NCBI GenBank assembly: GCA_038848005.1
Contig: JAWCNZ010000005.1
Span: 1,647-65,646, forward strand
Source: Candidatus Bathyarchaeia archaeon
GTDB taxonomy: Archaea; Thermoproteota; Bathyarchaeia; Bathyarchaeales; Bathycorpusculaceae
Length of the DNA: 64,000 nt
Direction: 5' to 3'
The notes under the pieces are model-generated. The model was not told the origin of the DNA and did not search any database. It worked only from the letters and a program-made list of their open reading frames with translations. The position numbers and the translations under genes were made by a program. The stretch's first letter is position 1. Each line of letters starts with the position of its first letter. Positions 17,673 through 34,591 of this stretch are shown here, in pieces.

Positions 17673-19040
17673 TTAACAGCCCTTCATGGTTTGCTTTAAT
17701 TCCTTTTCAGCGAATTTGTAGAGTTCATCAAGTTTCTTTTCAGTTTTTGCTTCGGCGGAAACCCGTATGAGGGGTTCAGTGTTGGACGGCCTTAAAAGAA
17801 TCCAACCGTCCTCGTCCAAGAGTTTTACGCCGTCTATGTCCAGAAACTTTAAGCCACGCTCTTTGAATTTAGCCTTCAACTTTTCAATAACAGCAAATTT
17901 CAGATGGTCTGGACATTCAAAGTTTCTTTCATGAAAGGCGAGATATTTGGGCAGGGAATCCACAATTTCTGAAAGGCTTTTGTCGCTTTTGGATAGTATT
18001 TCAGCCATTTTTAGACTGGCGAAAACTGCGTCGTCCATTCCGCCGCATTCTGAAAAGTAAAAGTGACTGCTTGTTTCTCCGCCTACAAGGGCTTTTTCCC
18101 TGATCATCCTATCCATAATAAAGGTGTGACCAATCCTTTCAACCAGCGGAATCCCGCCGTTTTTCCTTATAAACTCTTCAACAGCCATGGAACAACTTAA
18201 ATCATAAATTATTTTTCCACCCTTGCTTTTTTTAAGGGCGTCCCCAGCGAAGATCATTAAGGTTAAATCGCCTGGGATTACCCGTCCCTTACCGTCAACG
18301 AAAACGGCTCTGTCGCCGTCTCCGTCGTAGCCAACGCCGAAATCCGCCTTGTCGTTCACCACTTCCCTTTTTAATTCAGTAAGCGTTTCCTCTTTTGGTT
18401 CGGGTAAATGCGCTGGAAAGTTTCCATCGGGCTTTTCATTTAAAACTTTAACTTCACAGTTTAACTGTTTAAAGAGGGATGAAACTAGCAGTCCGCAAAC
18501 GCCGTTGGCGGTGTCGGCAACCACTCTAAGCCTTTTTTCAACTTTAACTTTTCCCAGAACAAAGTTCATGTAATCTCGGAGGATCCCATCGTACTTGGCG
18601 ATTTTACCATTTTTTTCACCTAAGTTTTTTAGGATTGCAGCTTTTGCCATTTCCTTTATCTGAGCAATTTCACCGCTGGAAAGGCACATTCCACGTTTGA
18701 AAAGTTTAAATCCGTTCCATTTTGGAGGGTTGTGGGAGGCAGTAATCATTATGCCAGCGTCGCTTTTCAGGTGGTTGACTGCAAAATAAAGCACGGGTGT
18801 GGGAGCCATGCCCACATCGGTGACGTTGCAGTTGGAGATTAACCCTGAAACCAAAGCGTTTTTGAGGGTTTCCCCGCTTAGTCTGGCGTCTCTGCCGACA
18901 ACCACCGTCCTGTTTTTCCCAACAAAAAGGCTGAAAGCCGCTCCAACAGCGGTTGCAACATCCTCCGTTAACGTTTCGCCATAAACACCCCTAATGTCAT
19001 AAGCCCTAAAAATGCTGTCAAATTGTCCATGAGCTGCCAA
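17673..19040 (-). CDS. glmM: Phosphoglucosamine/phosphohexose mutase
   Basis: Active-site ITASHNPPKWNGFK, GYDGDGDR metal loop, GGETSSH sugar loop. Confidence 0.85.
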   Translation of the reverse strand: MAAHGQFDSIFRAYDIRGVYGETLTEDVATAVGAAFSLFVGKNRTVVVGRDARLSGETLKNALVSGLISNCNVTDVGMAPTPVLYFAVNHLKSDAGIMITASHNPPKWNGFKLFKRGMCLSSGEIAQIKEMAKAAILKNLGEKNGKIAKYDGILRDYMNFVLGKVKVEKRLRVVADTANGVCGLLVSSLFKQLNCEVKVLNEKPDGNFPAHLPEPKEETLTELKREVVNDKADFGVGYDGDGDRAVFVDGKGRVIPGDLTLMIFAGDALKKSKGGKIIYDLSCSMAVEEFIRKNGGIPLVERIGHTFIMDRMIREKALVGGETSSHFYFSECGGMDDAVFASLKMAEILSKSDKSLSEIVDSLPKYLAFHERNFECPDHLKFAVIEKLKAKFKERGLKFLDIDGVKLLDEDGWILLRPSNTEPLIRVSAEAKTEKKLDELYKFAEKELKQTMKGC

Positions 19041-19098
19041 CGTCTTTATCCTCGCTGAATTTCCAGATTAAGTTATCAACGGTTTTTAATAAACCATA

Positions 19099-20211
19099 CT
19101 ATGTTTTGGCTTTTGCCGTTAACCCCTCACAGAATTTCATCAGTTGTTTTCGCGTTGGATGCTGCCCATAAGGGTTTGAAATGTAGTAGGCGGCTACTGC
19201 GTTTGCCAACGCAAGCCGACAAGCGTCTGAAAGTGCGTAGGCGTCTCCTAAAATGTTTCCAGCAGTCCAAGCGTCCCCAGCGCCCGTCGCCCTCAAAACT
19301 GGAACTTTAAAGGCTGGAACAACGGTTTCGCCGTTTTTTGTGAATGTTGCTGAAAACTCTGTTGTGTGCAGGTCAATTCTTGCCGAAAGCTGCGACGCCA
19401 ATATTTTAGCGGATTCCATTGCCAACTCGTCAAACCGCAAACTTTCACGGAATTTATCCACTTTTTCGCTTATTTGCGATGCGTAGCACACGGCTTCGTT
19501 TTCGTTTACGCCTAAAATGTCTATGTGTTTTCCCATCAAAACTTTTTTCACTAATTCTGGAATTTTTTCTTTGTTGGGGTAGGGATCCGCCGTGTCATAG
19601 TAGGTTTTGCCTTTCCCATTGGTTTTTACGTGACGGAAAACTGTTTCGGCTAGTTCAGTGCCGAAATTTCTTGTTCCAGCCCAGTTGAAAAGGCATACGT
19701 AATCGGCATTTTCAATTACGCTGAAGTCTTTGTCGCTTAAATGTTGGGGTCCGAAATCCGCCAGTGAGCCCACGTCTCGGAGCATGACGTTTACTTTTCC
19801 ATCGCCTATTTGGAATTCCATGGCTGTTGTTACGGATGGTTTCTCCATGATTTTAACGTGGGAGAAGTCCACCCGTTTTGATTTGATGTAGAACTTGAGC
19901 AGGTGAAATCCAAACTTGTCGGTGCAAATTATTGGTGTAACGTTTACGCCTAAACTTGCCAATGCATTAGCCACGTTAACCGAGTTTCCGCCTCTAATGT
20001 CTGTTTGGGCTATTCCATCTATGCTTCCGCCTTTTCTTTGGGCTACGCCCCTAACGTTTTCGCAGGTGGCTTCAACGTTCCACGGCAAGTTTATGAAACG
20101 GTCAAGGAAAAAATCGGGCATAACAACAACGTTAAGTTCCTCTTTTATTTCGCCTTTAAGAAAGTTTTTCAGCTCTTCCATGTATTCAACCAAGGTTTTG
20201 GTTTCCTCCAT
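19099..20211 (-). CDS. PfkB/ribokinase-superfamily sugar kinase
   Basis: GGNSVNVANALASLG, GVNENEA and GAGDAWTAG motifs. 370 aa. Substrate not determinable from the sequence. Confidence 0.7.
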   Translation of the reverse strand: MEETKTLVEYMEELKNFLKGEIKEELNVVVMPDFFLDRFINLPWNVEATCENVRGVAQRKGGSIDGIAQTDIRGGNSVNVANALASLGVNVTPIICTDKFGFHLLKFYIKSKRVDFSHVKIMEKPSVTTAMEFQIGDGKVNVMLRDVGSLADFGPQHLSDKDFSVIENADYVCLFNWAGTRNFGTELAETVFRHVKTNGKGKTYYDTADPYPNKEKIPELVKKVLMGKHIDILGVNENEAVCYASQISEKVDKFRESLRFDELAMESAKILASQLSARIDLHTTEFSATFTKNGETVVPAFKVPVLRATGAGDAWTAGNILGDAYALSDACRLALANAVAAYYISNPYGQHPTRKQLMKFCEGLTAKAKT

Positions 20212-20267: not shown

Positions 20268-21077
20268 CTATCCGAAAATGAAGCTGATGAAATTCCACAC
20301 TAAATCGCCTAAAAACAAAGCGAGGATTAGCGCCGCCGTCATGAAGATTAGCATGGGCAAGCCAGGCGTCGCCCAAACTTTGTTTTGGATTTTGCCGTTT
20401 TCAACGGCTTTGGCTAGGCGTTCAACTATGGCGTTTCTGCCTTCATCTTTTGGTACAACAACAAGTTTCCGTTTAAAAGTGCCTTCAGCGTTTTCTTCGA
20501 CATCTTCTAGGGGATATAAATGCCATTTTTCCTTTAATTTATCAACAGAAATTTTATAGCCAGTTATTAAAACTACAAGTTTTTTCCAGACGGATTCTTT
20601 TTGGTGGTTTTCTTCAAAGAGTTTCTCGCCTGTTTTCACGTGCCAGAACACGTTGTGAAGCAACATGTAAACAGTTGTTGCCGCCGCCAGCAAAACGGAG
20701 TTGCTGAAAACGGTTATTGGAAAGAAAAACTGTGATGTTGGCGAAACCTCGCCTAGTAAAGGCGTAAACACGTTGGGATGAAACGGTAAGGCGAGAGCCA
20801 AACACATTAGGGCTTTTGCGTCTGCCCCGCCGAAACCTCCAGCGTAAAAGAGCGCCACGGCGAAAGCTGAAGTTAAACCGAAACATAAGCCATAAAGGAG
20901 CAACAATTCAAAATTGAACATTAAAAAAAGTTCAGTGAATGTTAATGTGAAGGCTGTTGGAGCGAAGAAAACCCAAACTTTGTTTCTTACTTCACGAGTT
21001 TTATAATCGCTGTAGGAAGCATAAAATAGAAAGGATAAGGCTAGTGCTGTTCTAGCCGTGCCAAGTATTGTTTGCAT
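20268..21077 (-). CDS. A24-family prepilin/preflagellin peptidase (PibD/FlaK/EppA-like)
   Basis: Two catalytic Asp contexts, YSDYKTREV and GGFGGADAKAL. Polytopic, with a soluble insertion. Confidence 0.8.
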   Translation of the reverse strand: MQTILGTARTALALSFLFYASYSDYKTREVRNKVWVFFAPTAFTLTFTELFLMFNFELLLLYGLCFGLTSAFAVALFYAGGFGGADAKALMCLALALPFHPNVFTPLLGEVSPTSQFFFPITVFSNSVLLAAATTVYMLLHNVFWHVKTGEKLFEENHQKESVWKKLVVLITGYKISVDKLKEKWHLYPLEDVEENAEGTFKRKLVVVPKDEGRNAIVERLAKAVENGKIQNKVWATPGLPMLIFMTAALILALFLGDLVWNFISFIFG

Positions 21078-21233: not shown

Positions 21234-21677
21234 TTATTTTGCTTGAACTGGCACGTCGCCTGTTGTTGCGCCAGTTGTCGTCGTAACTTTGATTGTATAT
21301 CGCGAATTAGCAACAAAATCGAATCCAGCCCCTGTGCCGTTTACGGTTATTATTGCTCTCCCTCCAACGGCTATTGTGTATGGCAACGTGGGTTGTTTAA
21401 CGCAGTATGTAACGTCTGTTCCGTCGATGTATACTGCGTCTATGGTTGCGGGTTCTGTGCCGGTGTTTCTGACGTAAATGGTCACTGTATCATTTGCAGC
21501 GTTGATTGTTGCGGAGTCTATGCGTATCCATGTGCCTGCTTGTGTTCCTGCGCTTGTCATGTACGTCATTATCCAAGCGTATGTTACAACTATGGCGGCT
21601 ACGGCTATAACTATTAGCAGAAGCGTAGCCAGTATAGGCGATATTGCCCTTTTAGACTTTAACATTTTTTTAATCAT
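21234..21677 (-). CDS. Archaeal type IV pilin (class III signal peptide)
   Basis: N-terminus LKSKRAISPILATLLLIVIAVAAIVV, then a beta-rich Thr/Gly domain. 147 aa. Confidence 0.75.
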   Translation of the reverse strand: MIKKMLKSKRAISPILATLLLIVIAVAAIVVTYAWIMTYMTSAGTQAGTWIRIDSATINAANDTVTIYVRNTGTEPATIDAVYIDGTDVTYCVKQPTLPYTIAVGGRAIITVNGTGAGFDFVANSRYTIKVTTTTGATTGDVPVQAK

Positions 21678-21926: not shown

Positions 21927-22160
21927 ATGGTTGAAAGTCGAGTTGGTTCGAAAGGCGAGTTGTTTCCGCCTAAGGAGATTAGGGAGAAGCTTGGGCTTCA
22001 AGCTGGTGAAAAAGTCGTTTATAGGGTTGAGGATGGAAGGCTTGTGGTGGAACCCGTTCCAAAACTTGAGGATGTTTTGAGGGAGCCGTCTCTTGTTGAG
22101 TTAACGCTTGAAGAGTTTCATGGGTTTAGGAGAGAGTTTTCTCGGAAGGTTGAAGCTTGA
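21927..22160 (+). CDS. vapB: AbrB/SpoVT-type antitoxin (VapB-like)
   Basis: KGELFPPKEIREKLGLQAGEKVVYRVEDGRLVVEP swapped-hairpin motif. 4-nt overlap with the downstream PIN gene. Confidence 0.7.
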   Translation: MVESRVGSKGELFPPKEIREKLGLQAGEKVVYRVEDGRLVVEPVPKLEDVLREPSLVELTLEEFHGFRREFSRKVEA

Positions 22161-22618
22161 ATTTGCTTTTGGACACTACGTATCTTTTGCCAGCTATAGG
22201 AGTTTCCATTAAGGGCTTTCCGAAAGATGCGCTTTTTAGGTTGATGAAGAAGGGACATCAAATTGCAATAAGTGACATAAGCATTTTTGAGCTTTCAGCT
22301 GTTGGTGCTAAGCAAGTTTTTGTTGGAACGCTTCCAGCTGAAAGAGTGGCAAAAGGCATAAGAGCAATAGTTTATGATGAGCGTATGTCTGTGATTCCGT
22401 TTTATGATAGTTCGGTTTTGCTTATGGCTTTCAAGCTTAGAAAATTGCTGAATGATTTTATAGATTGTTTGATTCTTTCTTCGGCTGTGAACCAGTGCGA
22501 CGCCATATTAACGGAAGACGAGGACATTCAAGATTTAAAGAGGAACAAAGAGTTTGCTGGGTTTGTAGCGACTGTGAATCCGAAATTTGAAATTCAAAAG
22601 TTAACGGATATACTTTAG
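22157..22618 (+). CDS. vapC: PIN-domain toxin (VapC-like)
   Basis: Acidic residues at LLDTT, IFEL, DCLIL and TEDED. 153 aa. Confidence 0.65.
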   Translation: MNLLLDTTYLLPAIGVSIKGFPKDALFRLMKKGHQIAISDISIFELSAVGAKQVFVGTLPAERVAKGIRAIVYDERMSVIPFYDSSVLLMAFKLRKLLNDFIDCLILSSAVNQCDAILTEDEDIQDLKRNKEFAGFVATVNPKFEIQKLTDIL

Positions 22619-24594
22619 CTTTCAGTTGTTACGGTGATTGTCGGCGGATATTCAACGAGCACCCACAAGCCAGTGGCGCTGGCGCCTCCGCCCTTATAAA
22701 TCGGCGTGTAATTCGTGTTGAAAGTCACCACTGCACCATACCAGCAAATATCTGATGCGCTGGCGAAGTTGTTTACCAAAGCAAGTGAACTTACCGGAAG
22801 AAGCTCTATTATTCTGTAAGTGGGCCAGCCTGTTGTTGTTTGGTTTATCCGCAAAGCACCAGTTGGATTTCCATTGGTGGTCATGGCATCAAAGTAATAC
22901 AGCATTTTATTGGAGGCGTCTGGAAACATTATTCCAAACCCTCCAGAAGAAGCGTTTAACTGGCTCCAGCGATGTTGCCAAACACCAGACATATTATAAA
23001 ATAGATTGTAGCCTGAAGAAACCATTGGATAACCGCTTGGTAATGTGCCGTTTTCGGTAAAAGCATAAACGTTTGCCGTTGTGCTAAGTCTAATCAAGCA
23101 TAAATCGTTAATGGTTCTTGGTTTATCTGCGGAGTCCAAGAATATTAGGCGCAACTGATATGTGTAGTATGTGGCGTTAGCTGGCAAAGTAATGACAACA
23201 TGCGCATAAAAATTGTAGCATGCGGGGTTACTGACGCCGCCTCCATACTCTGGCTCGCCTTGCACAATATCTCTTACAACACCACTATACAGAGTCCAGC
23301 CCCACTCTGGGTCGGTATTGTCCTCCTCACCGTTTATGCGCATTAGATTTGCCGTATTTGACACGCCGCCACCTACAGTTGCAGTAACTGTAAAACCGCT
23401 AGACGAAAACTGAAGGGTAAGTATGCGGTTGCTCAGCCTTCTATTGTTGATGTCATCGTTAAAGTACCTATTAACGTATGCGTATGGCGTTTGTACCGTG
23501 GTGTCGCTTCCGTTCCACCATATTGTAACTTTCGTAACGTTTGGGTTTACTAGGAAAACGAGCATGTGTCTGTTGCTGAATATGCTTGCGTTGCTTGTTA
23601 AGCCCAACGGGATTTTGTAGTCTGAAGCCCAATCTTCTATTTGGAAGGGCACTTCCTGGTTTACGCCGTTTATGGTTGTTTGGTTTACACGTATAGCCTT
23701 TACTGGTATCGGCGGGACCGGTTTAGCTTGTGTTGTCAACTGCAAGTTTTGTCCAAGCCAACGCATCGTGCCGTTCTGCAACAACTCAACGACAATTGTG
23801 GCGTCAATTGCGTTTCTCAGCGGCGCATAAAGCGTGCTGTTCCAACTTAACGTAAGCGCATACCGGCTGAAGGATGAAACAACAGTCAATAAGCCTCTTG
23901 GATCTTCAACCTGCACTACATAGGAGTACTTGTCAATGTTGGCTAGCGCTGGATCGTTCATGTCGATCGTGTACGTGCCGTTTGTGTCGGCTGTTGGTTC
24001 ACGGCTTGGGTTCACCAGCACCCAAGTGGAATTTCCATAACTGTAACTGTAAAATTTGAAGTTTTGTTTTGTAAGGCTTAACAATGGTTCGCCTCCTTCC
24101 CTTGTTACCAAAAGCCTTGTCTGGTTAGTTGACAACTCTTTCACTTGCACTTTTAACTCGCATGAAGTTTCGTAACGCATCCCATACAATCCCAAACCGG
24201 CAAGGCTGTAGTTTACGGCTAAGCGTCCACGACTCCAACTGCAGTTGCTATACCAATAAATGCTTAGGTCTACACTGCTCAAATTAAATGAAGCGCCAAG
24301 TTCCGGATGCATTCTGGAAATGCTTTCCAACCCGCTTTTAGCGTAGTTTATGGCTAACTCTTTAGCGTAAGTGGAGTTTCCAGTAACCTTCAAAACAGAA
24401 CCATAATAACCAATCGTGAAACCCAAAATCTCCTTTAAAGCCAAGTTCGTCTCGTCTATTGTGCTTAATATTTGGGGTTGAACTTGTATTGGACTTATGC
24501 GCAACATGGAATAAGTCATCACGAGAGTGGCTACAAGCACGGCAGCCACAAGCAAAGCCGCAATAATCGAAAACTGACCTTTACCGCCGTTCAT
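22615..24594 (-). CDS. Giant pilin-like secreted protein (659 aa), last gene of the filament operon
   Basis: ATG 24594 is preceded by GGAGGTG and lies 4 nt after the upstream stop. N-terminus MNGGKGQFSIIAALLVAAVLVATLV is a class III-type signal. The body is sequon-rich and beta-rich. Confidence 0.6.
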   Translation of the reverse strand: MNGGKGQFSIIAALLVAAVLVATLVMTYSMLRISPIQVQPQILSTIDETNLALKEILGFTIGYYGSVLKVTGNSTYAKELAINYAKSGLESISRMHPELGASFNLSSVDLSIYWYSNCSWSRGRLAVNYSLAGLGLYGMRYETSCELKVQVKELSTNQTRLLVTREGGEPLLSLTKQNFKFYSYSYGNSTWVLVNPSREPTADTNGTYTIDMNDPALANIDKYSYVVQVEDPRGLLTVVSSFSRYALTLSWNSTLYAPLRNAIDATIVVELLQNGTMRWLGQNLQLTTQAKPVPPIPVKAIRVNQTTINGVNQEVPFQIEDWASDYKIPLGLTSNASIFSNRHMLVFLVNPNVTKVTIWWNGSDTTVQTPYAYVNRYFNDDINNRRLSNRILTLQFSSSGFTVTATVGGGVSNTANLMRINGEEDNTDPEWGWTLYSGVVRDIVQGEPEYGGGVSNPACYNFYAHVVITLPANATYYTYQLRLIFLDSADKPRTINDLCLIRLSTTANVYAFTENGTLPSGYPMVSSGYNLFYNMSGVWQHRWSQLNASSGGFGIMFPDASNKMLYYFDAMTTNGNPTGALRINQTTTGWPTYRIIELLPVSSLALVNNFASASDICWYGAVVTFNTNYTPIYKGGGASATGLWVLVEYPPTITVTTES

Positions 24595-24598
24595 TTGC

Positions 24599-25927
24599 CT
24601 ATACACCTCCCACAACGCCCAACTGCAAAACAACAAGCCTAGTAGCGTTAGTAGCCGTATACTCAGAACAGTAAAGCCTAGGCTTATAATAAGACAAAAG
24701 CCCAATAGCAGTCAACCGAATATCAGGAGTACGCGTTACACCCAAAGCCAAAAGAGAACCTTCAACCCGTGTACCTCTAATATGATGATACAACGCGCCT
24801 GGATTATACCATTGGTTTTGAACACTAAAACTGTTAAATATGTATAGTTTGGGAAACAGGTTGTAAGAGGCTAGTGTGGAATTGCTTAAAGCTCTTTTCG
24901 AAGTCTGAATTGGATAGGGATATATACCATAATAGTTGCAACAATCCAAAACTTGAGGTGAAAGAGTAACAATGACATCTCCTGTATAAACAACGCCCGC
25001 AGTATTGCGACTGTAATTTCTATTGTCTATTCCTTGAAGAAAGGCGTTCATCCCCGCTGGACCAGTTTGGTTCATCCCCCAAATTCCCCAGCCATTTTGG
25101 TTATTGAGACTTTCTGTGTTTGAAACGTAGTAGAACGGGTAGCCCACTATGCTTACCCAAGTCCAATTGTAAAGGCGCGTCATATTACCTAAAAAATGAA
25201 AATAGCGAGCATAATCGTTGGAATATGGTGTTGTGCAGTACGCTGATGGTATTGGCACCGCTTCGCCAAAGGTGTTTATGACTACGGCGTTTTGCACTGT
25301 TTCGCCTTGCAAACTTTGGTTGTTCAATATCAGCCCTAGTTGCGCCGTGTTTTGCACCATTACTGTTTTTTGGAAGTAAGGCGATAATAGGTTGTATAGG
25401 TCTTGGGCGAGGCTGTGTGCTGAGTAGCCCGTAATCCACCATCCACGGGCATCACTACAATTCAATATATACAATGTTCCGCCAATTCCGGTTTTTTCGC
25501 CAACTTTTTCGGGAATCACATTAAAAGTCACATTTGAAGAAGCAACCAAAAGCGAAGCCGCATCTGAACCAACACCTAAACTTTCAGCATTAGAAACAGA
25601 CCAGCAATAAGCATAAAGCTCAGAGCCGCCTCCGCCCAAAACCTGATAAACAGTCAAATTATAGATTATGTTCGGCGGCAAACAAGCGGAAAGCGCAACC
25701 CGAAGCCGACTTACAACCTCAGCAAAATCCGTATCATTCCTATTCACAAACGCTATTTCGCTTAGGCTGTAATCGCTATCCAAAACCTCAAGAGTTGACA
25801 ACGCTAATCGCCTAAGGTTTAAAGGCGAAACTTCCCGTGGCGAAGGCAAAACAGCAAAGAAAGAAGCCAACACGAAAGCTCCAAAAATAATAATTATTAC
25901 GAGCATAACTTCAACCGTACGCATCAT
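24599..25927 (-). CDS. Pilin-like protein (442 aa) with N-terminal hydrophobic helix
   Basis: MMRTVEVMLVIIIIFGAFVLASFF N-terminus. ATGA overlap with the upstream gene. Confidence 0.5.
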   Translation of the reverse strand: MMRTVEVMLVIIIIFGAFVLASFFAVLPSPREVSPLNLRRLALSTLEVLDSDYSLSEIAFVNRNDTDFAEVVSRLRVALSACLPPNIIYNLTVYQVLGGGGSELYAYCWSVSNAESLGVGSDAASLLVASSNVTFNVIPEKVGEKTGIGGTLYILNCSDARGWWITGYSAHSLAQDLYNLLSPYFQKTVMVQNTAQLGLILNNQSLQGETVQNAVVINTFGEAVPIPSAYCTTPYSNDYARYFHFLGNMTRLYNWTWVSIVGYPFYYVSNTESLNNQNGWGIWGMNQTGPAGMNAFLQGIDNRNYSRNTAGVVYTGDVIVTLSPQVLDCCNYYGIYPYPIQTSKRALSNSTLASYNLFPKLYIFNSFSVQNQWYNPGALYHHIRGTRVEGSLLALGVTRTPDIRLTAIGLLSYYKPRLYCSEYTATNATRLVVLQLGVVGGV

Positions 25928-27162
25928 TTAGCCATCACCCCATAACCCTCCAAACTCCACAGGGCAAGCCTAGCCTGATAAGCAACGCCATTAACAATAA
26001 CTTGGCGAATATCAGCGGCAACCCACTCCTGCCCAGAAGGGTCACCGCCAAAAACAACAGACAAACCAACAACGCCGATACCCCAAGGCATAACAACCAT
26101 ACCATACTCGTTTCCGTGACGATAAGCCACAACCAGAAAACCCGCTTTTGAAGTGGGAATTTGTATGACAGAGTAGTTTATTGCTCCATAATTTACAGTT
26201 CCCGTCAAATTCCACAACGACGGCACTGGCACAAAGTTTTCCGACAAAACATAAAAAGTAGCGTTAAAATGCAAAGCACCTTGGTTTCCACCGGGGTCGT
26301 TTTTGCCCCATTTATGAGCAAGCAAAACCGTTCCATCCTCAAAACTTTCAACAAAAGGTATAATATTTCCAGCACTTGTTGTAACGTCCCGCGCTTTATA
26401 ACCCACACCGCAAAGCCCACTAAGCTGTACTTTAACGATAAAAACATAGGCAGTCTTGTTGTTGTCAACTCTTATGTATGGAAATTCTTTGTAGGCTATG
26501 CCTAAAGAATCTGTTTCAATGAAATCTCCATTAATATCGCTTGAAGTGAAGTTCAAAATGGGAAAGTCACCATATGCTGTGTTTGACCAAAACATTAGGT
26601 AGGTTAGGTTTGCGTTACTAAGCGGAGACCCAAAACCGCTAACTTGGATTTTAAACTTTAACGGATTTTCCCGAACCTCTGTTATATCCACCGTTAAAAT
26701 GGGCGTAATCGTCAATTGAAAACCATAAGTTCCATTCACACCCAAAAGCTTAGAAGCCAAATCATAAGTGACGCATTCGCTTTCCCTTAAAAGAAAGTAT
26801 CCGCCATTGACGCCCCAAGACACGTTGCTGTAATAATTTCCAGTCCTAGCGTAATATACCAAGTCGCCGGAAGAAGAAAGAAGCCTCATTAAAGAAAATG
26901 GGTTAAGCCTGTACTGCGTCGTAAAGTTTCGGTCTTGCAAACCAAAAACAGACGGCACAACACCGCTTTCACCCCAATCCGTCGGTATGCCAGGATTCAA
27001 CAGTATATTGTCAAGTAAATCACTGCATTTTGTTGCGAGGAACCTGTGACGCTGATATAAAATGGCTGTTTGAATTGTCTGGTTGAAAAGGCTCATGAAA
27101 ACAAGCAGAGCCCCTATAAAAATTATCAGCGAGATTAAGTGGTCTATGGTGGAACCCGCCAT
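25924..27162 (-). CDS. Pilin-like protein (412 aa) with N-terminal hydrophobic helix
   Basis: MAGSTIDHLISLIIFIGALLVFMSLF N-terminus. 5-nt gap to the upstream gene. Confidence 0.5.
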   Translation of the reverse strand: MAGSTIDHLISLIIFIGALLVFMSLFNQTIQTAILYQRHRFLATKCSDLLDNILLNPGIPTDWGESGVVPSVFGLQDRNFTTQYRLNPFSLMRLLSSSGDLVYYARTGNYYSNVSWGVNGGYFLLRESECVTYDLASKLLGVNGTYGFQLTITPILTVDITEVRENPLKFKIQVSGFGSPLSNANLTYLMFWSNTAYGDFPILNFTSSDINGDFIETDSLGIAYKEFPYIRVDNNKTAYVFIVKVQLSGLCGVGYKARDVTTSAGNIIPFVESFEDGTVLLAHKWGKNDPGGNQGALHFNATFYVLSENFVPVPSLWNLTGTVNYGAINYSVIQIPTSKAGFLVVAYRHGNEYGMVVMPWGIGVVGLSVVFGGDPSGQEWVAADIRQVIVNGVAYQARLALWSLEGYGVMAK

Positions 27163-27167
27163 TGCGT

Positions 27168-27635
27168 TTAGCCTCCGAAACCTAGCCGTATGGTTCCATC
27201 AGCAAGTTTCTCAGCTGTTATGCAAGCGTTTGTGGAGTTGCTGATAAAAGTTGAAGGCTTCCAAACGGCGTTTGGACCGAGAATAACAGTGGCTTTTGCG
27301 GTTATTCCAGCGCCAACCAGCCTAAACGTTAATTCCAAAAGCTTACTTGCATTTAATGGTTTGAGAGTTGCATTTCCAACATAATGATGATTTTCTATGA
27401 ACGGTGGAACATCCAAATTGTGTCTTACATTGTCGGCGGTTACAGCAGTGTGGTTCAAAGCAAAATACAATTGTTGTATGCTGCTTCCAATGTGGCTTGT
27501 AACTTCCTGAAGCGCCAGCGTCCTCCGTGAATCAATCCATACGTTCATAAGCAAACTTGCAGATAAAGGAAAAAGGAAAATCTGCAAAATCAAAACTGGA
27601 AGCAAAATGACATATTCAATGGTTATGTGAGGCAT
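27168..27635 (-). CDS. TadE-like pseudopilin (155 aa)
   Basis: MPHITIEYVILLPVLILQIFLFP resembles the bacterial TadE/TadF N-terminal motif (xxxEFALVLPVLLL). AGGAGG lies 8 nt upstream of the ATG. Confidence 0.55.
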   Translation of the reverse strand: MPHITIEYVILLPVLILQIFLFPLSASLLMNVWIDSRRTLALQEVTSHIGSSIQQLYFALNHTAVTADNVRHNLDVPPFIENHHYVGNATLKPLNASKLLELTFRLVGAGITAKATVILGPNAVWKPSTFISNSTNACITAEKLADGTIRLGFGG

Positions 27636-27648
27636 TCACCGCTCCTCC

Positions 27649-28473
27649 TTAAACCCTCCCCAACGAAACCATCACTTCACCCACGTAAAACTCAACAACA
27701 CCGCCGCCCGTTGGCACAGTCACTGTTTCGTTGACGAAGTTGAAGAAAAACTTGTCAAATCCGAGGCTTTCGTTCGGAAAAGAAACACGTAAAACAACGT
27801 TGGCAACGTTTCCCGCTGTTTTAACTGAAATTTTTTTTCCAGTAAGCGTTATACGCTGCGAAAGACGTGGAGAAGTTCCATTCGAGAGAACAGGCAAATA
27901 GAATTTGTAATTTGTCGTTGTAGTCTTCAAAACTCTTATCGTTGGGACGATGACAACCCTAATGAAATTTCCATCGTACATAGGCAATTTTTCAACGACA
28001 TACACATAGCTGACAGGCGCCGACGTTCCATTGTTAAGGAAAGACCTGCTTGAGGGGTAAACGCTTCTGTAATAGTTGTTTCCAAGCGAGTAGCAGCTTA
28101 GCGGCATGTTGAATAGGAGTATGCCCGTAGTGAAGTTCCACCATTCGCCGTTCACGTAAACGCTGTAGTTTAAAACTTTAGTTTCAAAGTTCACATATCC
28201 ATACTTGCTTGCGTAACGGATTGTCCGCGTGCTTCCGGGAATCCACGCTACATCGTCTATTTGAAGCCCAACGTTCTGCATAAACTGTTCCATGGCGCTG
28301 AACTCGTTTTCAGCCATCCGCAAATTTAAAAAGTTGTTTGCAAAAACGATTGTTACAAGCAAGAGCACCACAACAGCGCCCGTCAATATTGTTGTTGAAA
28401 TTGCTGGACTAACAGCTTTCGTTTCTCTCCTCAAATTTTTATGTGGTGAACGTTTAAGCTTCAAATTTTCCAC
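27649..28473 (-). CDS. Archaeal type IV pilin-like protein (274 aa)
   Basis: RRETKAVSPAISTTILTGAVVVLLLVTIVF is a class III signal peptide. Confidence 0.7.
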   Translation of the reverse strand: MENLKLKRSPHKNLRRETKAVSPAISTTILTGAVVVLLLVTIVFANNFLNLRMAENEFSAMEQFMQNVGLQIDDVAWIPGSTRTIRYASKYGYVNFETKVLNYSVYVNGEWWNFTTGILLFNMPLSCYSLGNNYYRSVYPSSRSFLNNGTSAPVSYVYVVEKLPMYDGNFIRVVIVPTIRVLKTTTTNYKFYLPVLSNGTSPRLSQRITLTGKKISVKTAGNVANVVLRVSFPNESLGFDKFFFNFVNETVTVPTGGGVVEFYVGEVMVSLGRV

Positions 28474-28475
28474 TC

Positions 28476-30170
28476 CTAACCAAACTTTATAAATATGGGC
28501 ACAAGCTCAGCAGCTAAAGCGGCAATTATCACCAATATCGACGCATGTTTAAAGCCAGCCGCTATGGATTCCTCACTTATTTTTCCAGCCACTATACCTA
28601 TCAAATAGCTGTGGAAAATGGCTGAAGTGACAAACGTGGTTATCATTGGACTCAAATCTTTTTGTTGTCCAGTTGCAGCCACGCCTAAAGTGCCAGAGGT
28701 GAATCCAATCATCATTGTTGTTGTCGCCACAAGCAAAATCGCAGCGAAATAGGGCATCAAAATGTATGGGCGCACAGCCATTTTCTTTTCCTTTTCAACT
28801 TCCTGCGTTAAATTGTTAAATCTCGCCAGTGATTCAATCATGGCTATTGTGCCGCCGCCTACGTCTATGGTTTCAACAAGCAGGAACATGACGATTTGAG
28901 CCATCCAACTTCGCATTCGCTTGACAAAATCCATTATTACTTTCCGCGCGGGAACACCCCAAGAAATTTCTGAGCTTATTTTACGCAGTTCCTTGCTGAA
29001 CTCGCCGTAATCACGGTTTGAAAGGCTTTCAATGCATTTTTCAGGGGATAAACCCGTCTTTCTAACTTCTGTTAAGTCTCTTAGGAAACTGTTTATGCCC
29101 CGTTCAATGCTTTCCTTTTTCTTTGAAAGTTTAGCGTGAACCACAGCGGCTGGCGCCGTCGCAACAAAAAGCGCTATGGCTATTGCTATTGGCAACTTGA
29201 CAGCGTTTTGACTGAAAAATGGAATTTGCCCGTATCCCATAAAGTTCGTCATCAACAGAAACAGTATTATGGCGATTATGCTGCAAACTCCGAAAACCTT
29301 GTAGGGACGCATTTCCACAACTGGACTTTTGGGCTGCATGCTGTGGGCTAAATAAATGAACATCAACGAAAGCATAGGCGTAAACAAGTAAGTGTATAAG
29401 ATTATGCCGGAAAACGATGAGATGCCGACGCTGTAGATGGATTCTACACTGAAAAGTATGTAAAAGCAAAGCGACATCAAAACCATCACGATTATGAAGG
29501 TTTCCAAGAGCATGCCGAGCCTTTCAGCTGCAGCCTTAACACGCAAAGCCCTAGTTTTAAAAATGTCCTCAGCTTTTCTTTCAAGGAAATGTCCGATGTC
29601 TCCGCCTATGATAACTGTTGAAGCGTAACCGGAAAGAAAGTCCCTGTAAATGTCAAGCGGGTTTTTCTTGGCGGCGTTTTCTATGGCTGTAAGCGGGTCT
29701 ATCCCGAAAATTTCCACGTCCTTTAGGATTTCTCTTGCTTCGCTTCGCATGGCAGGCATCAACTCGACTTCGGCAAGCCGCTTAAAACTTGTGTAGGGCG
29801 CTATGCCCCCAGAAGCCATAACGCTAATGTAAGCAGCTGCAAAGGGCATTTCCCTTTCCAGGTTGCTCGCCCTTTCGCCAGCCCGTGATATGGGTATTAA
29901 AAGGAAACCAATCATTACATAGGCTGGAAGCGGCACCAAAAAAACCAACGGCATAAAACCGTAAAGGTACACAAGCACTATGGAAACAATTGAAACTGGA
30001 GCGGTTAAAGCTGCAATAAAAAACATCAGTGAAACGTAGGTTTCAGGGTAAATTTTGATTCTCGCCCTTTCCAGATAATCCTTAAATTCGAAAACGTTTC
30101 GCAGAAACGAAGGCGCTAATTTGCCGAAAATGCGGAACGACCAAGCTTCAAGGCTTTCTAGGAGCGGCAA
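28476..30170 (-). CDS. Type IV filament platform membrane protein (TadB/TadC/FlaJ-like)
   Basis: 564 aa, polytopic, with two cytoplasmic helical blocks. Overlaps the ATPase gene by 23 nt, the invariant position for this family. Confidence 0.75.
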   Translation of the reverse strand: MPLLESLEAWSFRIFGKLAPSFLRNVFEFKDYLERARIKIYPETYVSLMFFIAALTAPVSIVSIVLVYLYGFMPLVFLVPLPAYVMIGFLLIPISRAGERASNLEREMPFAAAYISVMASGGIAPYTSFKRLAEVELMPAMRSEAREILKDVEIFGIDPLTAIENAAKKNPLDIYRDFLSGYASTVIIGGDIGHFLERKAEDIFKTRALRVKAAAERLGMLLETFIIVMVLMSLCFYILFSVESIYSVGISSFSGIILYTYLFTPMLSLMFIYLAHSMQPKSPVVEMRPYKVFGVCSIIAIILFLLMTNFMGYGQIPFFSQNAVKLPIAIAIALFVATAPAAVVHAKLSKKKESIERGINSFLRDLTEVRKTGLSPEKCIESLSNRDYGEFSKELRKISSEISWGVPARKVIMDFVKRMRSWMAQIVMFLLVETIDVGGGTIAMIESLARFNNLTQEVEKEKKMAVRPYILMPYFAAILLVATTTMMIGFTSGTLGVAATGQQKDLSPMITTFVTSAIFHSYLIGIVAGKISEESIAAGFKHASILVIIAALAAELVPIFIKFG

Positions 30171-31776
30171 CTGCTTTTACCTCCTCCCCCGCAACAACCT
30201 TTTCATAAATTTGCTGCGGTCTAGCGTAGTATTCCGCTATGATTGCAGCTACATCCCTGTAGCTTCTTATGTTGCGTTCACGCATCCAATGTAAAACGTT
30301 TCGGCGTCTCTCCATTTCTTCAAGCAGGTCTTTTTTGCTTAAGCCTTTACGCTCCTCAATTGACGCTAACATTATGCTTTCGTCAAGCGACGGTGCATGA
30401 ACGTCCTTGGCTGGTTGCCACTTAAACGGACACCGGTAATCTTCATAATCTGCAATTTCGTTAACGGTGATGACACGCCTATACGCTTTTCTTTCTGTGC
30501 CTTTTATCAGATGGACCCTCTGAACTGACAATACAATGTTCATGAGGGGAATGTAAGCTGGTGAAATATCCATGGGTTTAGAAGTTAAACGTTTGATGGC
30601 TGAATCCAGATTTTCAGCGTGCATCGTGCACATGCCACCGTGACCAGTGGCTAAAGCCTGAAACAGCACATAAGCCTCTTGACCTCGCACCTCGCCTACA
30701 ATTAATATGTCTGGACGGTGCCTCATGGAAGTTTTAACCAAGTCGAAAAGCGTCACTTCGCCAACGCTGCTTCCGCCTAAGCCGTAACTTTGTCTGGCTA
30801 TCAGCGAAACCCAGTTTTCATGCGGCAAATTAAGTTCAGCTGTTTCCTCAATCGTGATTATTTTGCTTCCAGGCCTGATTAGGCAGGCTAAAGCGTTTAA
30901 TGCTGTTGTTTTTCCAGCGGCTGTTCCGCCTAGAACCATTATGGAAGCTCTGTTTTCGAGGCAAAGCCAGAAGTACGCTGCCATTTCCTCTGAAAAAGTG
31001 CCTAGGTTTATTAAGTCTATTATGGAGTAGGGGTCCTCCCTGAATTTTCTTATGGTGAAGGCTGTTCCAAATGGCGTAACTTCACGTCTGTAGCATACCG
31101 CCAGCCGGTGCTTGCCAGGCAAAGAAGCGTCAACTATGGGGAAGGCTGAGCTTACGTGCTTTCCAGCCATGTGCACGAGCTTGACAACCATGTTGTCAAG
31201 TTCCTCGTCGGTTTCAAATTCTATGTTTGTTTCGATGCTTTCGTAGTTTCTATGCCAAACGTAAACTGGCTTGTTAACTCCGTCGCATGAAATGTCCTCG
31301 ATGTTTGGGTCTCTCATTAAGGGGTCAATTCTGCCGAAGCCTACAAGGTCTCTTTCGGCGTGATAAAGAATTTTGTACCATGAAACGTCTGGAAGCCAAC
31401 CGAGGCTTATGCGGTATTTACCAACAATTTTTCTGGCTTCTTCAGCAAAGAATTTTCTAGGGTCGACTATTTCTTCTTTTGGCGATTCTATTTCTGCAAG
31501 CAATATTTCTAAAATGCGATTGTAAACGCTTCTTTCCAACGGGTCAAGCTGTAACTCGTCTAGGATGTATTTGTATTCGCCTGTTTTTGGGTTTTGCACT
31601 ATCGCCACGTGGGCGAACGGTTCATAAAGTGGATATTTTTCGACAACTTTGAATCCTCTGGGCATTGGTTTTGGTGGAGGTGGTGGAATGGCTACTTTCT
31701 GGCGTTTTCCAATGTTGAGTTTTATCTTCACTTTTTTGAGTTTTGCTAATGTTTCTCTGAACTGCGGTTTTTTCAT
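30148..31776 (-). CDS. Type II/IV secretion-family ATPase (TadA/PilB/ArlI-like)
   Basis: Walker A GGTAAGKTT, Walker B/Asp box ILIVGEVRG, His box GHGGMCTMHA. 542 aa. Confidence 0.88.
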   Translation of the reverse strand: MKKPQFRETLAKLKKVKIKLNIGKRQKVAIPPPPPKPMPRGFKVVEKYPLYEPFAHVAIVQNPKTGEYKYILDELQLDPLERSVYNRILEILLAEIESPKEEIVDPRKFFAEEARKIVGKYRISLGWLPDVSWYKILYHAERDLVGFGRIDPLMRDPNIEDISCDGVNKPVYVWHRNYESIETNIEFETDEELDNMVVKLVHMAGKHVSSAFPIVDASLPGKHRLAVCYRREVTPFGTAFTIRKFREDPYSIIDLINLGTFSEEMAAYFWLCLENRASIMVLGGTAAGKTTALNALACLIRPGSKIITIEETAELNLPHENWVSLIARQSYGLGGSSVGEVTLFDLVKTSMRHRPDILIVGEVRGQEAYVLFQALATGHGGMCTMHAENLDSAIKRLTSKPMDISPAYIPLMNIVLSVQRVHLIKGTERKAYRRVITVNEIADYEDYRCPFKWQPAKDVHAPSLDESIMLASIEERKGLSKKDLLEEMERRRNVLHWMRERNIRSYRDVAAIIAEYYARPQQIYEKVVAGEEVKAVAAPRKP

Positions 31777-31924: not shown

Positions 31925-34591
31925 TTACTCCTCTGCCTCTTCCTCCCCACCCAAAGAAACCACAATAATTTTCAGCTTAACCAAAACAACAAACACAACA
32001 ACAATCACTATTGGAATAAGAACCAAAAGTATAGTCAGCCAAGGCAAACCCTCACTGGGCTTTTCAATTTGAGGATTCACAGTTATCGAAATCTGTTCTT
32101 CACCACTTGCATATCCAAACTTGGTTGCACTAGCCGTAATATTCACAGACAAAAACGTTGTTGTTTGCGGAGCAGTGAAAACAAACGTGCAAACACCATC
32201 TGCACCAGTCAAGTTTGCCGTTGGATAAGCCGTTCCATCAGTGCATGAAAGGCTAACTGAAGCATTAACAACAGGAAAGCCCTCGCAAATAACATAAACA
32301 GTCACAAGGACTGTTCCTTCAGAAGCGACAGACGACCGCTCAGCGGTGACTTCAACATCAAGCACTCCTGGGTTAACACCTATTTTAATCATGTTCTCCC
32401 CGTTTGCATATCCAGTTTTTGCTGCCACCGCCCAAAGCGTTATATTGCTTGGCGTGTCCACACAAGGCGCCGTGAAAGTGAAGGTTGCATAGCCATTGTA
32501 ATCGCTTAACATAAATTCAGGAGAGAAACTTCCAGCTTCTGGGATTAACGTAACATTTGCCTCTGCAACTGGACTTTCGCCATATGTCACTTGAACGGTT
32601 ATGGTTACTATTCCTTCGGAAACCGTAGCGCTGGGTTCCGCTGTCAACTGAACAAAAAGTATTCTTGGGACAACCGTTACAACAGCGTAGCCACTGCCGT
32701 CCATGTATCCACTTTTAGTTGCATTCACCGTAATAATCCCAGTAACCCCATCTTTTGTTGTTACTTGTGGCGCTGTGAAAACGAAAACGGCGTTGCCATC
32801 CGCATCCGTGGTTGCCACTGTTTTGTTAAAGTTTCCTTCGATGGTTGATGAAATTGTAACTGTAACGTTTGAAACAGGAACATAATCAAACGTCACATAA
32901 GCCTTTATGGTGGACGCTTCCTCTGAAAGTACAGTAGACGGTTCAGCGGTTACTTGAACAACAAGCGGCGGAATAACACTCAAATATTTGTGGTCTGAAC
33001 CGTCAGCAAAAGAACTTTTAGAGGCTCTTGCAATTATTCTAACATTCGTCGTTTCAGTGACGTTTGGCGCCTTAAAAGTGGCGGTGAAATAGCCGCTTGA
33101 GTTCGTCAAGCCAGAAGCGAAACTTCCACCTTTCACCGAAAGCAACGTAACGTTTGCGTTTCCGACGGCGTTTCCGCCATACGACACATAAACTGTGACT
33201 TGAACTTCCCCGTTGTAGGCTACGGTGTAACTGCTAAGGGTGAGGGACACTTGCAAAGAGGGCAAATTAGTAACATTTATCACCACGAAACTTTTAAGGC
33301 TTGAAGTGTTGAAGTCGTCCCTAACCGTTAAGCCTGCAGTGTACAGTCCAGTTAAACTGTAACTGTGAGTGAAAAGCGAAAGGGTTGTCCAGCCGCTGCT
33401 GTTTCCATCCCCAAACTCAAATAGGTACTCGTTAACTTTTCCATCATCGCTTGAGTTGGTACCCACAAAAGTGATGGGCTGATTTGGCGCAACAACAACT
33501 TTATCTGTCCAGAGAACCGCCGTCGGCGCAACATTGCTATGATTAATGGGATGGGTTAAAAAGAATATGAAATTGACGTTCGCCCCTTCTCCCTTTACGG
33601 GATTTCCTTCTCCGCGTGGATTCAAGGATTCATGGTAGGGTCCACTTGCGCTTCCCCAGTAGTTGTATGTTGCATCCACGAAAGCCCCAGACGAAACATC
33701 CACGCCAACAGCGTTACCATATATATCGTTGAAGTGTGCTGTATGTCCCGTTCCCTTCTCGTAGCAGACTCCCACATCGTTATTTATAATGTAATTTCGG
33801 GTTATGTGAGTTGCAACGTCGCTTGAAACGTAAAAGCCGTTGGCGTTCTTTGAAATTGCATTATTTATAATTATGATAGTGTCGTAAGTGCTTACATCAG
33901 AAAGCATTATTCCGCTGTGAGTGTTAAACTTTATTTCGTTATAGCTTATGTTTATTTCAGATGTTAAATCTCCAGTTAAGACTATGCCGTCTCCGTTGTA
34001 GGCTATGGAGTTTTTTGTACAGTTAACTTGTCCGCCAGCTATGAAAATTCCATTTTTAGTATTATTCACAATTTCACTGTCTTTGACAGCCACGTTGCCG
34101 CCTAAAACCGTAATTCCACTTTCAGAGTTGCACTGTACCGTGCTGTTTTGAATGTTTAAGGAACCGCTTTCCACAGTTATTCCATTTGTCCCATACTCCA
34201 CAATGCAGAACAAAAGCGAAGAATGCTGTGCGGAGTTAAACTTTATTGTTACCCAACTTCCAGCTTCTCTTTGAAGCTTGTTTGAAGCGAACTTTATGGG
34301 CTTATCCTTTAAACCCTCTGCAATAAGCCTTCCCTCAACAGTTATCGAGAAGCTTCCTCCAAAACGCACTTCAACCCCAGGCTCAATCGTCAACGTTGCA
34401 CCTTCCAAAATGGTTAAATCACCAGAAACTACAAATGGACTGTCAACAAGAGTCCACACAGTGTCCTGCACAATGGAACCTTCAACATAAGTCGCATTTA
34501 CAACAGAAACCAACGACACGTTTATAAAACTGAGAACGCTACTAAAAGTTAAAGCAAATAAAATAAATGACGCTTCAACCTTAACTTTCAT
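31925..34591 (-). CDS. Large surface protein: signal peptide, right-handed beta-helix (NosD/PbH1-like), PKD domain, four Ig-like repeats, C-terminal TM anchor
   Basis: Beta-helix repeats (NGITVESG, SGITVLGG, NGIFIAGG, DGIVLTG), the YNYWGS motif, PKD core FEFGDGNSS...HSY, and the C-terminal anchor LTILLVLIPIVIVVVFVVLV with an acidic tail. Confidence 0.7.
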   Translation of the reverse strand: MKVKVEASFILFALTFSSVLSFINVSLVSVVNATYVEGSIVQDTVWTLVDSPFVVSGDLTILEGATLTIEPGVEVRFGGSFSITVEGRLIAEGLKDKPIKFASNKLQREAGSWVTIKFNSAQHSSLLFCIVEYGTNGITVESGSLNIQNSTVQCNSESGITVLGGNVAVKDSEIVNNTKNGIFIAGGQVNCTKNSIAYNGDGIVLTGDLTSEINISYNEIKFNTHSGIMLSDVSTYDTIIIINNAISKNANGFYVSSDVATHITRNYIINNDVGVCYEKGTGHTAHFNDIYGNAVGVDVSSGAFVDATYNYWGSASGPYHESLNPRGEGNPVKGEGANVNFIFFLTHPINHSNVAPTAVLWTDKVVVAPNQPITFVGTNSSDDGKVNEYLFEFGDGNSSGWTTLSLFTHSYSLTGLYTAGLTVRDDFNTSSLKSFVVINVTNLPSLQVSLTLSSYTVAYNGEVQVTVYVSYGGNAVGNANVTLLSVKGGSFASGLTNSSGYFTATFKAPNVTETTNVRIIARASKSSFADGSDHKYLSVIPPLVVQVTAEPSTVLSEEASTIKAYVTFDYVPVSNVTVTISSTIEGNFNKTVATTDADGNAVFVFTAPQVTTKDGVTGIITVNATKSGYMDGSGYAVVTVVPRILFVQLTAEPSATVSEGIVTITVQVTYGESPVAEANVTLIPEAGSFSPEFMLSDYNGYATFTFTAPCVDTPSNITLWAVAAKTGYANGENMIKIGVNPGVLDVEVTAERSSVASEGTVLVTVYVICEGFPVVNASVSLSCTDGTAYPTANLTGADGVCTFVFTAPQTTTFLSVNITASATKFGYASGEEQISITVNPQIEKPSEGLPWLTILLVLIPIVIVVVFVVLVKLKIIVVSLGGEEEAEE
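32072..33256 (-). repeat. Four tandem protein repeats of about 95-100 aa (Ig-like) inside the 888-aa surface protein
   Basis: Recurring pattern VxVTAEPS...V...NVTL...DG.ATF.FTAP....T..I.A.A.K.GY..G across aa 446-840. Confidence 0.7.

Follow-up and report, generated by a model that had tools for sequence, protein, structure and literature searches.

Leaderless pilin-like proteins with a conserved acidic residue near the N-terminus in a type IV pilus locus of Bathyarchaeia

A charge of the Glu5 type near the N-terminus of type IV pilins is held to be a bacterial feature. Pilins and minor pilins are generally regarded as functional only after a dedicated peptidase has removed their class III leader, and the minor pilins TadE, TadF and TadG make up a complex at the tip by which Tad pili are primed (PMC12075869). 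Among the archaeal type IV filament (TFF) systems, two surveys (Makarova et al. 2016, PMC4858521; Sivabalasarma & Albers 2026, bioRxiv 10.64898/2026.04.22.720090) place subsystem (or clade) 4A in Thermoproteota and part of the Bathyarchaeota; its loci have accessory genes that lie downstream of the platform gene, together with a large PilY-like adhesin. For the accessory components, Makarova et al. suggest "a minor pilin set" (PMC4858521). Here we describe a type IV pilus locus on the minus strand, at 20.2-34.6 kb, of a 64,000-nucleotide stretch of DNA from a Candidatus Bathyarchaeia archaeon (GenBank assembly GCA_038848005.1, contig JAWCNZ010000005.1, positions 1,647 to 65,646; this whole stretch is called the window). 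Downstream of the ATPase and platform genes lies a tightly packed cassette of five genes (Table 1), in which two class III proteins of 274 and 659 amino acids enclose three leaderless proteins of 155, 412 and 442 amino acids, each with an acidic residue close to its first methionine. The initial annotation of the window had proposed that a single archaeal type IV pilus locus contains pilin-like N-termini of two classes; this holds, and both kinds are conserved. By gene order, the window resembles the 4A layout; leaderless N-termini and a conserved acid are not reported in the available text of the two surveys (PMC4858521; bioRxiv 10.64898/2026.04.22.720090), in which respect the Bathyarchaeal cassette differs from subsystem 4A as described.

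The three leaderless products begin with MPHITIEYVILLPVLIL (155 amino acids), MAGSTIDHLISLIIFIG (412 amino acids) and MMRTVEVMLVIIIIFG (442 amino acids), and are identical (100%) to NCBI entries. For all three genes, the listed start is the first ATG, GTG or TTG past an in-frame stop; in the 155-amino acid gene, the codon immediately before the ATG is a TGA (27638-27636). Sites resembling Shine-Dalgarno (SD) sequences are found 6-8 nucleotides upstream of the starts (GGAGGA, GGAGG and GGTGAT for the 155-, 412- and 442-amino acid genes), and the start of the 442-amino acid gene overlaps the stop of the 412-amino acid gene (ATGA). The products begin five to six residues before the acid, and neither a class III signal nor a [KR]-[GAS] motif was found in any of the three N-termini. 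Coordinates, starts, closed frames and SD sites bear out what was first noted for the three middle genes, an early acid and almost no leader. Class III sites can likewise be read in all three proteins of the locus for which they had been claimed, ..ETKA/VSPAIS in the 274-, MNGGKG/QFSII in the 659- and SKRA/ISPIL in the 147-amino acid protein; the processed forms VSPAIS.., QFSII.. and ISPIL.. have no acid near the N-terminus.

The starts recur in a DNA survey of 84 related loci, where a canonical start codon occupies the conserved position in 46/46 (155-amino acid gene), 49/49 (412) and 69/69 (442) loci, SD-like sites are present at 42/46, 42/50 and 66/69 loci, respectively, and ATG ATG opens the 442-amino acid gene in 69/69 loci. 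Longer N-termini appear in 4-11% of database gene calls. The "MEPY/MEQY" extensions of 412-amino acid orthologs represent the conserved ..[DN]GT[IV].. 3' end of the 155-amino acid gene, read out of frame, and were discarded; such over-extensions were located at the junction of the 155- and 412-amino acid genes in two related loci (L001 and L003, both at ~6960-7000). A "TTG GTT AAA" start before the 442-amino acid gene was also rejected; it is the end of the 412-amino acid gene and lies 1-2 nucleotides from the SD site, and is therefore too close to act as a start. Upstream starts are excluded by the closed frames, by the survey of the 84 loci and by the out-of-frame origin of the extensions, and none of the longer ortholog leaders from upstream starts, for which the initial annotation had proposed to look, proved real.

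The N-terminal sequences are conserved across large families. For the 155-amino acid family, 507 homologs were found, and every one of them with a named source is from Bathyarchaeia; all three families have hundreds to thousands of metagenomic homologs; those with a named source are nearly all Bathyarchaeia. The N-terminus reads M-[PAT]-H-[IV]-T-I-E-Y-x-I-x-x-P-x-L in the 155-amino acid family, M-[AT]-G-x-T-I-D-H in the 412-amino acid family, and M-M-R-T-[IV]-E in the 442-amino acid family. The acid proposed for checking in orthologs is invariant in the family alignments: E7 across 46 orthologs of the 155-amino acid protein; D7, together with G3, I6 and H8, across 42 orthologs of the 412-amino acid protein; and E6, together with M2, R3 and T4, across 49 orthologs of the 442-amino acid protein. 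As judged from these alignments, the N-terminal pattern is far beyond chance. A search for distant relatives with the 155-amino acid family profile against 1.84 billion cluster representatives returned 104 relatives, nearly all of them small proteins or fragments, while a few very large multi-domain relatives matched by the C-terminal domain only; the glutamate is retained in 47 of 52 alignable full-length distant representatives.

A small residue at position 2 permits removal of Met1 by methionine aminopeptidase, according to the established specificity of this enzyme. Removal of Met1 is expected in the 155- and 412-amino acid families because residue 2 is small (P/A/T/V/G and A/T/V, respectively), and retention of Met1 is expected in the 442-amino acid family because residue 2 is Met. 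When positions are counted by this rule, the acid falls at +6 in 115 of 117, 49 of 52, 98 of 99 and 106 of 113 sequences; in three representatives of the 155-amino acid family, position 2 is Gln and the sequence is shorter by one residue, so that the acid stays at 6. Counted from the expected mature end, all three families would share the pattern x-x-x-T-[IV]-[E/D] with the acid at +6, which suggests a leader of one residue or none. The "+5" position given in the initial annotation has to be corrected: the acid is residue 7, 7 and 6 of the primary products, or +6 after the expected removal of Met1.

AlphaFold2 models, computed with ortholog alignments, predict a 55-residue helix (residues 6-60) followed by an eight-strand beta domain for the 155-amino acid protein (predicted local distance difference test score, pLDDT, 86), and a 52-residue helix (residues 3-54) with beta domains for the 412-amino acid protein (pLDDT 89.5, predicted template modelling score 0.86). 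A Foldseek comparison of the 412-amino acid model with the PDB returned generic tandem sandwiches of the fibronectin type III/immunoglobulin-like (FN3/Ig) type (E ~1e-5), and sequence searches of the PDB with the 155- and 442-amino acid family profiles and with the 659-amino acid protein gave no match. By architecture and context, the 155- and 412-amino acid proteins appear to be pilin-like, with an N-terminal helix of ~50 residues and a beta head. All five cassette proteins carry N-x-S/T sequons at 2.2-2.9 per 100 amino acids (2.2 in the 274-amino acid protein; 19 sequons in the 659-amino acid protein), a density that equals that of the neighbouring surface protein and compares with 0-0.45 per 100 amino acids in cytoplasmic neighbours; several sequon columns are kept in 70-100% of orthologs. 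Sequon density and conserved sequon columns indicate that the C-terminal domains are almost certainly extracellular and glycosylated. An N-out topology with cytoplasmic C-terminal domains, which the charges flanking the helix suggest, was rejected on sequon density and the Ig-like fold.

The five-gene cassette recurs elsewhere with the same sequence of N-termini. In a second Bathyarchaeon that is only 51% identical (locus L015), the whole neighbourhood is syntenic, the ATPase, platform and A24 peptidase genes are again encoded together with the pilin-like genes, and the N-terminal pattern of the cassette is kept; the 274-amino acid ortholog has the site ..NKWA/ISPAIS, and the ortholog of the 659-amino acid protein begins MNNRG/QFSII and extends to 1094 amino acids. 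On a distant hot-spring metagenome contig (L004, 7061-13335), the cassette stands alone, without an adjacent ATPase or platform gene; its N-termini are, in order, ..RRKSA/ISPV, MADVVIGN, MVSEMIDY, MMRTIEV and ..ARRG/QFII, with the first site continuing as ..RRKSA/ISPVIA and the last protein, the ortholog of the 659-amino acid protein, measuring 705 amino acids. At this locus, position 7 of the 155-family member is Gly in place of Glu, and D7 and E6 are retained in the members of the 412- and 442-amino acid families; the neighbours of the cassette are CBS- and LexA-type genes and an IS605 element. A contig scan with the single 412-amino acid protein found only three close loci, a tblastn search of plasmids with a distant 155-family member gave no match, and none of the five cassette proteins is covered by an NCBIfam family.

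The profile searches suggest a link between the 155-amino acid family and haloarchaeal proteins. DUF7266 (Pfam PF23928, gathering score 27.6 bits) was matched by 8 of the 46 orthologs (best E = 4.4e-4) and by 7 of 10 distant relatives (best E = 2.9e-5, 24.3 bits), in all cases below the gathering score, and the matches were colinear over about 100-130 residues; the window's own 155-amino acid protein had no DUF7266 match at E <= 1. These sub-threshold matches point to the 155-amino acid family as a remote relative of DUF7266. The 442-amino acid family showed weak matches to DUF7262 (best E = 0.019), a family that was not found at either of the haloarchaeal loci examined; hhalign comparisons of the three families with haloarchaeal DUF families of two sequences each, too shallow to inform, gave nothing significant, and no paper was found in a literature search for the DUF72xx family names. 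Both haloarchaeal plasmids carry DUF7266 within a set of up to five pilin-like genes located downstream of pilB-pilC; the order is DUF7287-DUF7288-DUF7261-DUF7266-DUF7289 at one locus, and only DUF7288, DUF7266 and DUF7289 are present at the other. The DUF7287-DUF7289 cassette corresponds to the pil-2-type locus of Halobacterium (PMC4292770). Like the Bathyarchaeal cassette, the haloarchaeal one has five pilin-like genes immediately downstream of those for the ATPase and the platform protein; the suggested remote relationship between DUF7266 and the 155-amino acid family and a +6 acid, which is a glutamate in DUF7288, are further points in common. The two cassettes differ in gene order and protein sizes, only the 155-amino acid family has repeated sub-threshold matches to the haloarchaeal cassette, and the examined haloarchaeal proteins have R-[AG]/ leaders of 3 to about 35 residues.

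These leaders provide a register for the mature N-terminus. Both examined members of DUF7266 have class III leaders (MRDERA/AATTLGY and ..DDTRG/VSSPVSY), and by the Pfam offsets, their +1 residue corresponds to profile position 6 and to residue 2 of the Bathyarchaeal relatives; by this profile register, proteins of the 155-amino acid family would begin at the haloarchaeal mature +1. Two DUF7288 sequences also have class III leaders (MRA/QAHTLEG and ..DDRG/LQWTLEA), and their T-L-E at +4 to +6 stands in the same register as the motif of the three Bathyarchaeal families. An acid near the predicted mature N-terminus was seen in several haloarchaeal accessory pilin-like families (L007, 13477-16291; L008, 13832-15253), as E at +6 in DUF7288, D at +3 in DUF7289 (DRA/VSDTL) and D at +4 in DUF7287, with one to two sequences per family; archaeal accessory pilins may have such near-N-terminal acids as a general feature.

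Bacterial minor pilins that initiate the filament tip (TadE-TadF-TadG, GspH-I-J-K, FimU-PilVWX) resemble the Bathyarchaeal set in several respects: they are pilin-shaped proteins of unequal size encoded beside ATPase and platform genes, they have a long hydrophobic N-terminal helix and a beta-rich head, most have a conserved early acid, and a priming or tipping role is likely in both cases. They differ in that all have a leader cut at G/(x4)E, whereas the Bathyarchaeal proteins lack a leader and have their acid at +6, and in that no significant sequence or Foldseek similarity links them to the Bathyarchaeal proteins. The initial annotation had gone further, reading the 155-amino acid N-terminus as related to TadE/TadF and the locus as bridging, in evolutionary terms, the Epd-like pili of archaea and the Tad pili of bacteria. 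In favor of such archaeal TadE/TadF homologs, the motif [IV]-E-[YF]-x-[IL]-x-x-P-x-L is common to the 155-amino acid family and bacterial TadE, and the TadE model (PF07811) is one of only two weak Pfam matches of the window protein. The match itself has E = 0.32 and scores 11.6 bits where the cut-off is 22.9, and E <= 1 is reached by only 5 of the 46 orthologs (best E = 0.2); when compared by hhalign with five bacterial TadE proteins taken from the Tad loci of plasmids (L010-L014), the 155-amino acid family aligned over 17 hydrophobic columns with 2.2% probability, and the 412- and 442-amino acid families gave no match. The N-terminus of the 155-amino acid protein matches that of the neighbouring 412-amino acid protein (E = 0.0018) more strongly than it matches TadE, and none of the proteins that the 155-amino acid profile retrieved from 1.84 billion representatives had a bacterial TadE-type leader and a G/xxxxE[FY] N-terminus. 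TadE proteins of the five plasmid loci read G/xxxxEF, with the acid at +5, compared with a leaderless 155-amino acid protein with the acid at +6. The motif resemblance appears to be real, as what two pilin helices with an acid and a proline can share; membership in TadE was rejected on the Pfam scans of the protein and its 46 orthologs and on hhalign, an outcome that the initial annotation had named beforehand as a refutation of its reading. The bridge fares no better, since a single platform gene and a globular pilin of 147 amino acids are found in the window, not paired TadB/TadC and a Flp-like pilin, and the detectable relatives are archaeal (DUF7266), not bacterial; this reading is unsupported, largely refuted and very improbable, and the cassette has no bearing on the origin of Tad pili.

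Two gene starts in the comparison loci look truncated as annotated. The TadE start "MEFALILP" of a Sulfitobacter plasmid (L014, 13218-13586) has an open upstream frame reading ..RNEDG/AVAMEFAL, and the DUF7287 start "VDFGIGAG" of a Halobaculum plasmid (L007, 12914-13474) has one reading ..RSRAQ/TTVDFG; these upstream frames contain normal leaders, and the Bathyarchaeal genes have closed frames.

We propose that the three middle proteins act, without a leader, as minor-pilin-like subunits of a complex that primes or tips the filament, with an acid that neutralises the N-terminal amine of a neighbouring subunit; the processing state and the entry into the filament are what we infer here, and we hold the proposal about evenly balanced between right and wrong. 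Translation would start at the residue that matches mature +1 of related archaeal pilin-like proteins, with no class III signal; Met1 would be removed in the 155- and 412-amino acid families and kept in the 442-amino acid family (Met-Met), and cleavage of the three proteins by the A24 peptidase would not occur. The shared register x1-x2-x3-T4-[I/V]5-[E/D]6 would lead into the hydrophobic helix, and the five cassette proteins would come together on the platform protein to prime or tip a filament made of the 147-amino acid pilin, in analogy to TadE/F/G. The buried acid would pair with the N-terminal amine of the neighbouring subunit, like Glu5 in bacterial pilins; the processed pilins have no acid near the N-terminus, and their charges may therefore be complementary to those of the leaderless subunits.

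Several observations weigh against this proposal. Foldseek found no significant pilin match for the 155-amino acid model in the PDB (best E = 0.17), and the 442-amino acid protein has a P-x-P after its membrane helix. No K or R precedes the helix in the 155- and 412-amino acid proteins, and basic residues follow it; the basic stretches past the first helix are D-S-R-R (invariant in the 155-amino acid family), Q-R-H-R and P-R-E..L-R-R, a charge pattern opposite to the positive-inside rule for the N-in topology of pilins. The haloarchaeal register extrapolates two profile positions and uses two haloarchaeal sequences per family. The most distant relatives of the 155-amino acid family have G, S or T in place of the glutamate, which indicates that the acid is not indispensable everywhere in this family, and any N-terminal acetylation would take away the amine on which the model depends.

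The archaellum stator proteins ArlF and ArlG (FlaF and FlaG) are related to pilins and archaellins and combine a beta-sandwich with an N-terminal membrane helix, which does not undergo class III signal processing. The Bathyarchaeal proteins could, in like manner, be membrane-anchored accessory proteins that stay outside the filament on an uncleaved N-terminal signal anchor, comparable to ArlF/ArlG or to PilN/PilO/GspL/M, and that gather around the platform as a base, anchoring or alignment complex, with the acid serving membrane helix packing or contact with platform or ATPase; we consider this explanation unlikely. It would account for the lack of a class III signal in the three proteins, the proteins would share with ArlF/ArlG a beta-sandwich and an unprocessed N-terminal membrane helix (the beta-sandwich ectodomain predicted for the 412-amino acid protein resembles what is generally known of ArlF/ArlG), and this explanation sits well with the L004 cassette, which lies away from an ATPase gene. 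An analogy with the archaellum is also drawn by Makarova et al. (2016) for untraceable accessory components of crenarchaeal clade 4A loci (PMC4858521). Yet the NCBIfam ArlF/ArlG models had no match at E <= 1 among the 155-, 412- and 442-amino acid proteins, the locus is a pilus locus without archaellum genes, and it encodes three such proteins, of 155-442 amino acids. The continuous helix of 52-55 residues in the 155- and 412-amino acid models is a pilin hallmark, the probable remote homologs of DUF7266 carry class III leaders, and the three genes are co-transcribed, in fixed order, between two class III proteins. The three proteins could also be ordinary prepilin peptidase substrates with ultra-short leaders (for example, MAG/STIDH), cut by the A24 enzyme encoded at 20268-21077, an account that we find quite improbable. 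The invariant G3 of the 412-amino acid family would fit the -1 Gly of a 3-residue leader, the A24 peptidase gene is apparently intact and syntenic in L015, and PibD accepts engineered leaders as short as 3-4 residues (PMC4187195, citing Ng 2009); the glycine and the tolerance of PibD count against a leaderless mode as well. However, no common site fits all three families, since position 3 is H/Q/N/S/D in the 155-amino acid family and the 442-amino acid family begins M-R-T at the corresponding place; the 155- and 442-amino acid families lack a -1 G/A/S preceded by K/R; residue 2 in the 155- and 412-amino acid families always permits Met excision, and the +6 acid is constant only if counted from residue 2. 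Enzymes of the FlaK type, moreover, need leaders of at least 5 residues (PMC4187195), and the window peptidase scores best against the FlaK model.

Beyond the proposal of leaderless priming subunits, a wider reading is that these proteins represent a class of pilin-like subunits that bypass the prepilin peptidase, with a mature N-terminus that the gene would encode as such and that loss of Met1 would expose, form the core of an old five-protein priming cassette and use the +6 acid in place of Glu5; we regard this as tentative and rather unlikely. In this reading, the cassette would be common to Bathyarchaeia and other Thermoproteota, and either derived from or ancestral to the leader-bearing relatives in Halobacteria. 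If true, the bypass would violate the requirement that each subunit of a type IV filament be processed by a class III signal peptidase. The cassette occurs on hundreds of metagenome contigs from Bathyarchaeia as well as in a distant lineage from a hot spring, which constitutes a natural test of what leader and acid do in membrane orientation, assembly timing and charge pairing within the helix bundle, and functional hypotheses are gained for DUF7262, DUF7266 and DUF7288, families that have none today.

Table 1. Genes of the type IV pilus locus and inserted genes, in window coordinates
Feature	Position	Strand	Evidence or remark
888-amino acid beta-helix/PKD surface protein, C-terminal membrane anchor	31925..34591	-	Pfam Beta_helix, NosD, PKD
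Assembly ATPase (PilB/FlaI-like)	30148..31776	-	Pfam T2SSE 2.5e-36, PilB3_C 2.2e-8
Platform protein (PilC/TadC/FlaJ-like), single gene	28476..30170	-	Pfam T2SSF 1.7e-24, 2 stretches
274-amino acid pilin-like protein, class III signal ..RRETKA/VSPAISTTIL, cassette gene 1	27649..28473	-	Open reading frame (ORF)
155-amino acid leaderless pilin-like protein (MPHITIEY...)	27168..27635	-	E7 codon 27615-27617
412-amino acid leaderless pilin-like protein (MAGSTIDH...)	25924..27162	-	D7 codon 27142-27144
442-amino acid leaderless protein (MMRTVEV...)	24599..25927	-	E6 codon 25910-25912
659-amino acid protein, class III signal MNGGKG/QFSIIAAL, last cassette gene	22615..24594	-	ATG at 24594
MazE/AbrB-type antitoxin (77 amino acids) and PIN-domain toxin (153 amino acids)	21927-22618	+	Between cassette and pilin/peptidase genes
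147-amino acid candidate major pilin, class III signal ..SKRA/ISPILATLLL	21234..21677	-	NCBIfam arch_flag_Nterm 1e-7, over 20-bit cut-off
Class III signal (prepilin) peptidase, family A24	20268..21077	-	Pfam Peptidase_A24 4.3e-12, Arc_PepC_II 1.7e-22

Among the remaining genes of the locus, the ATPase matches the NCBIfam FlaI model (2e-113) and the platform protein the UpsF model (1e-35), both under the model cut-off. The 659-amino acid protein is a probable adhesin-like large subunit; its translation almost certainly begins at the ATG at 24594, with GGAGGT upstream of it, and the TTG at 24705 that would yield the longest ORF was rejected as an over-extension that would overlap the 442-amino acid gene by 107 nucleotides. 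The gene for the 888-amino acid surface protein lies directly upstream of the ATPase gene, and a 1023-amino acid counterpart occupies the equivalent position in L015; this protein may be a functional part of the pilus system. A 143-amino acid pilin of L015 is syntenic with the 147-amino acid pilin. The MazE/PIN pair has no counterpart in the otherwise syntenic L015 and is therefore regarded as a local insertion. Downstream of the peptidase gene (16338-20211, minus strand), a PfkB-type sugar kinase gene is followed by ORFs resembling phosphoglucomutase/phosphomannomutase and nucleotidyltransferase, assigned from Pfam-annotated L015 counterparts in the same order; a possible role of these genes is the supply of sugar nucleotides for glycosylation of the sequon-rich pilus proteins.

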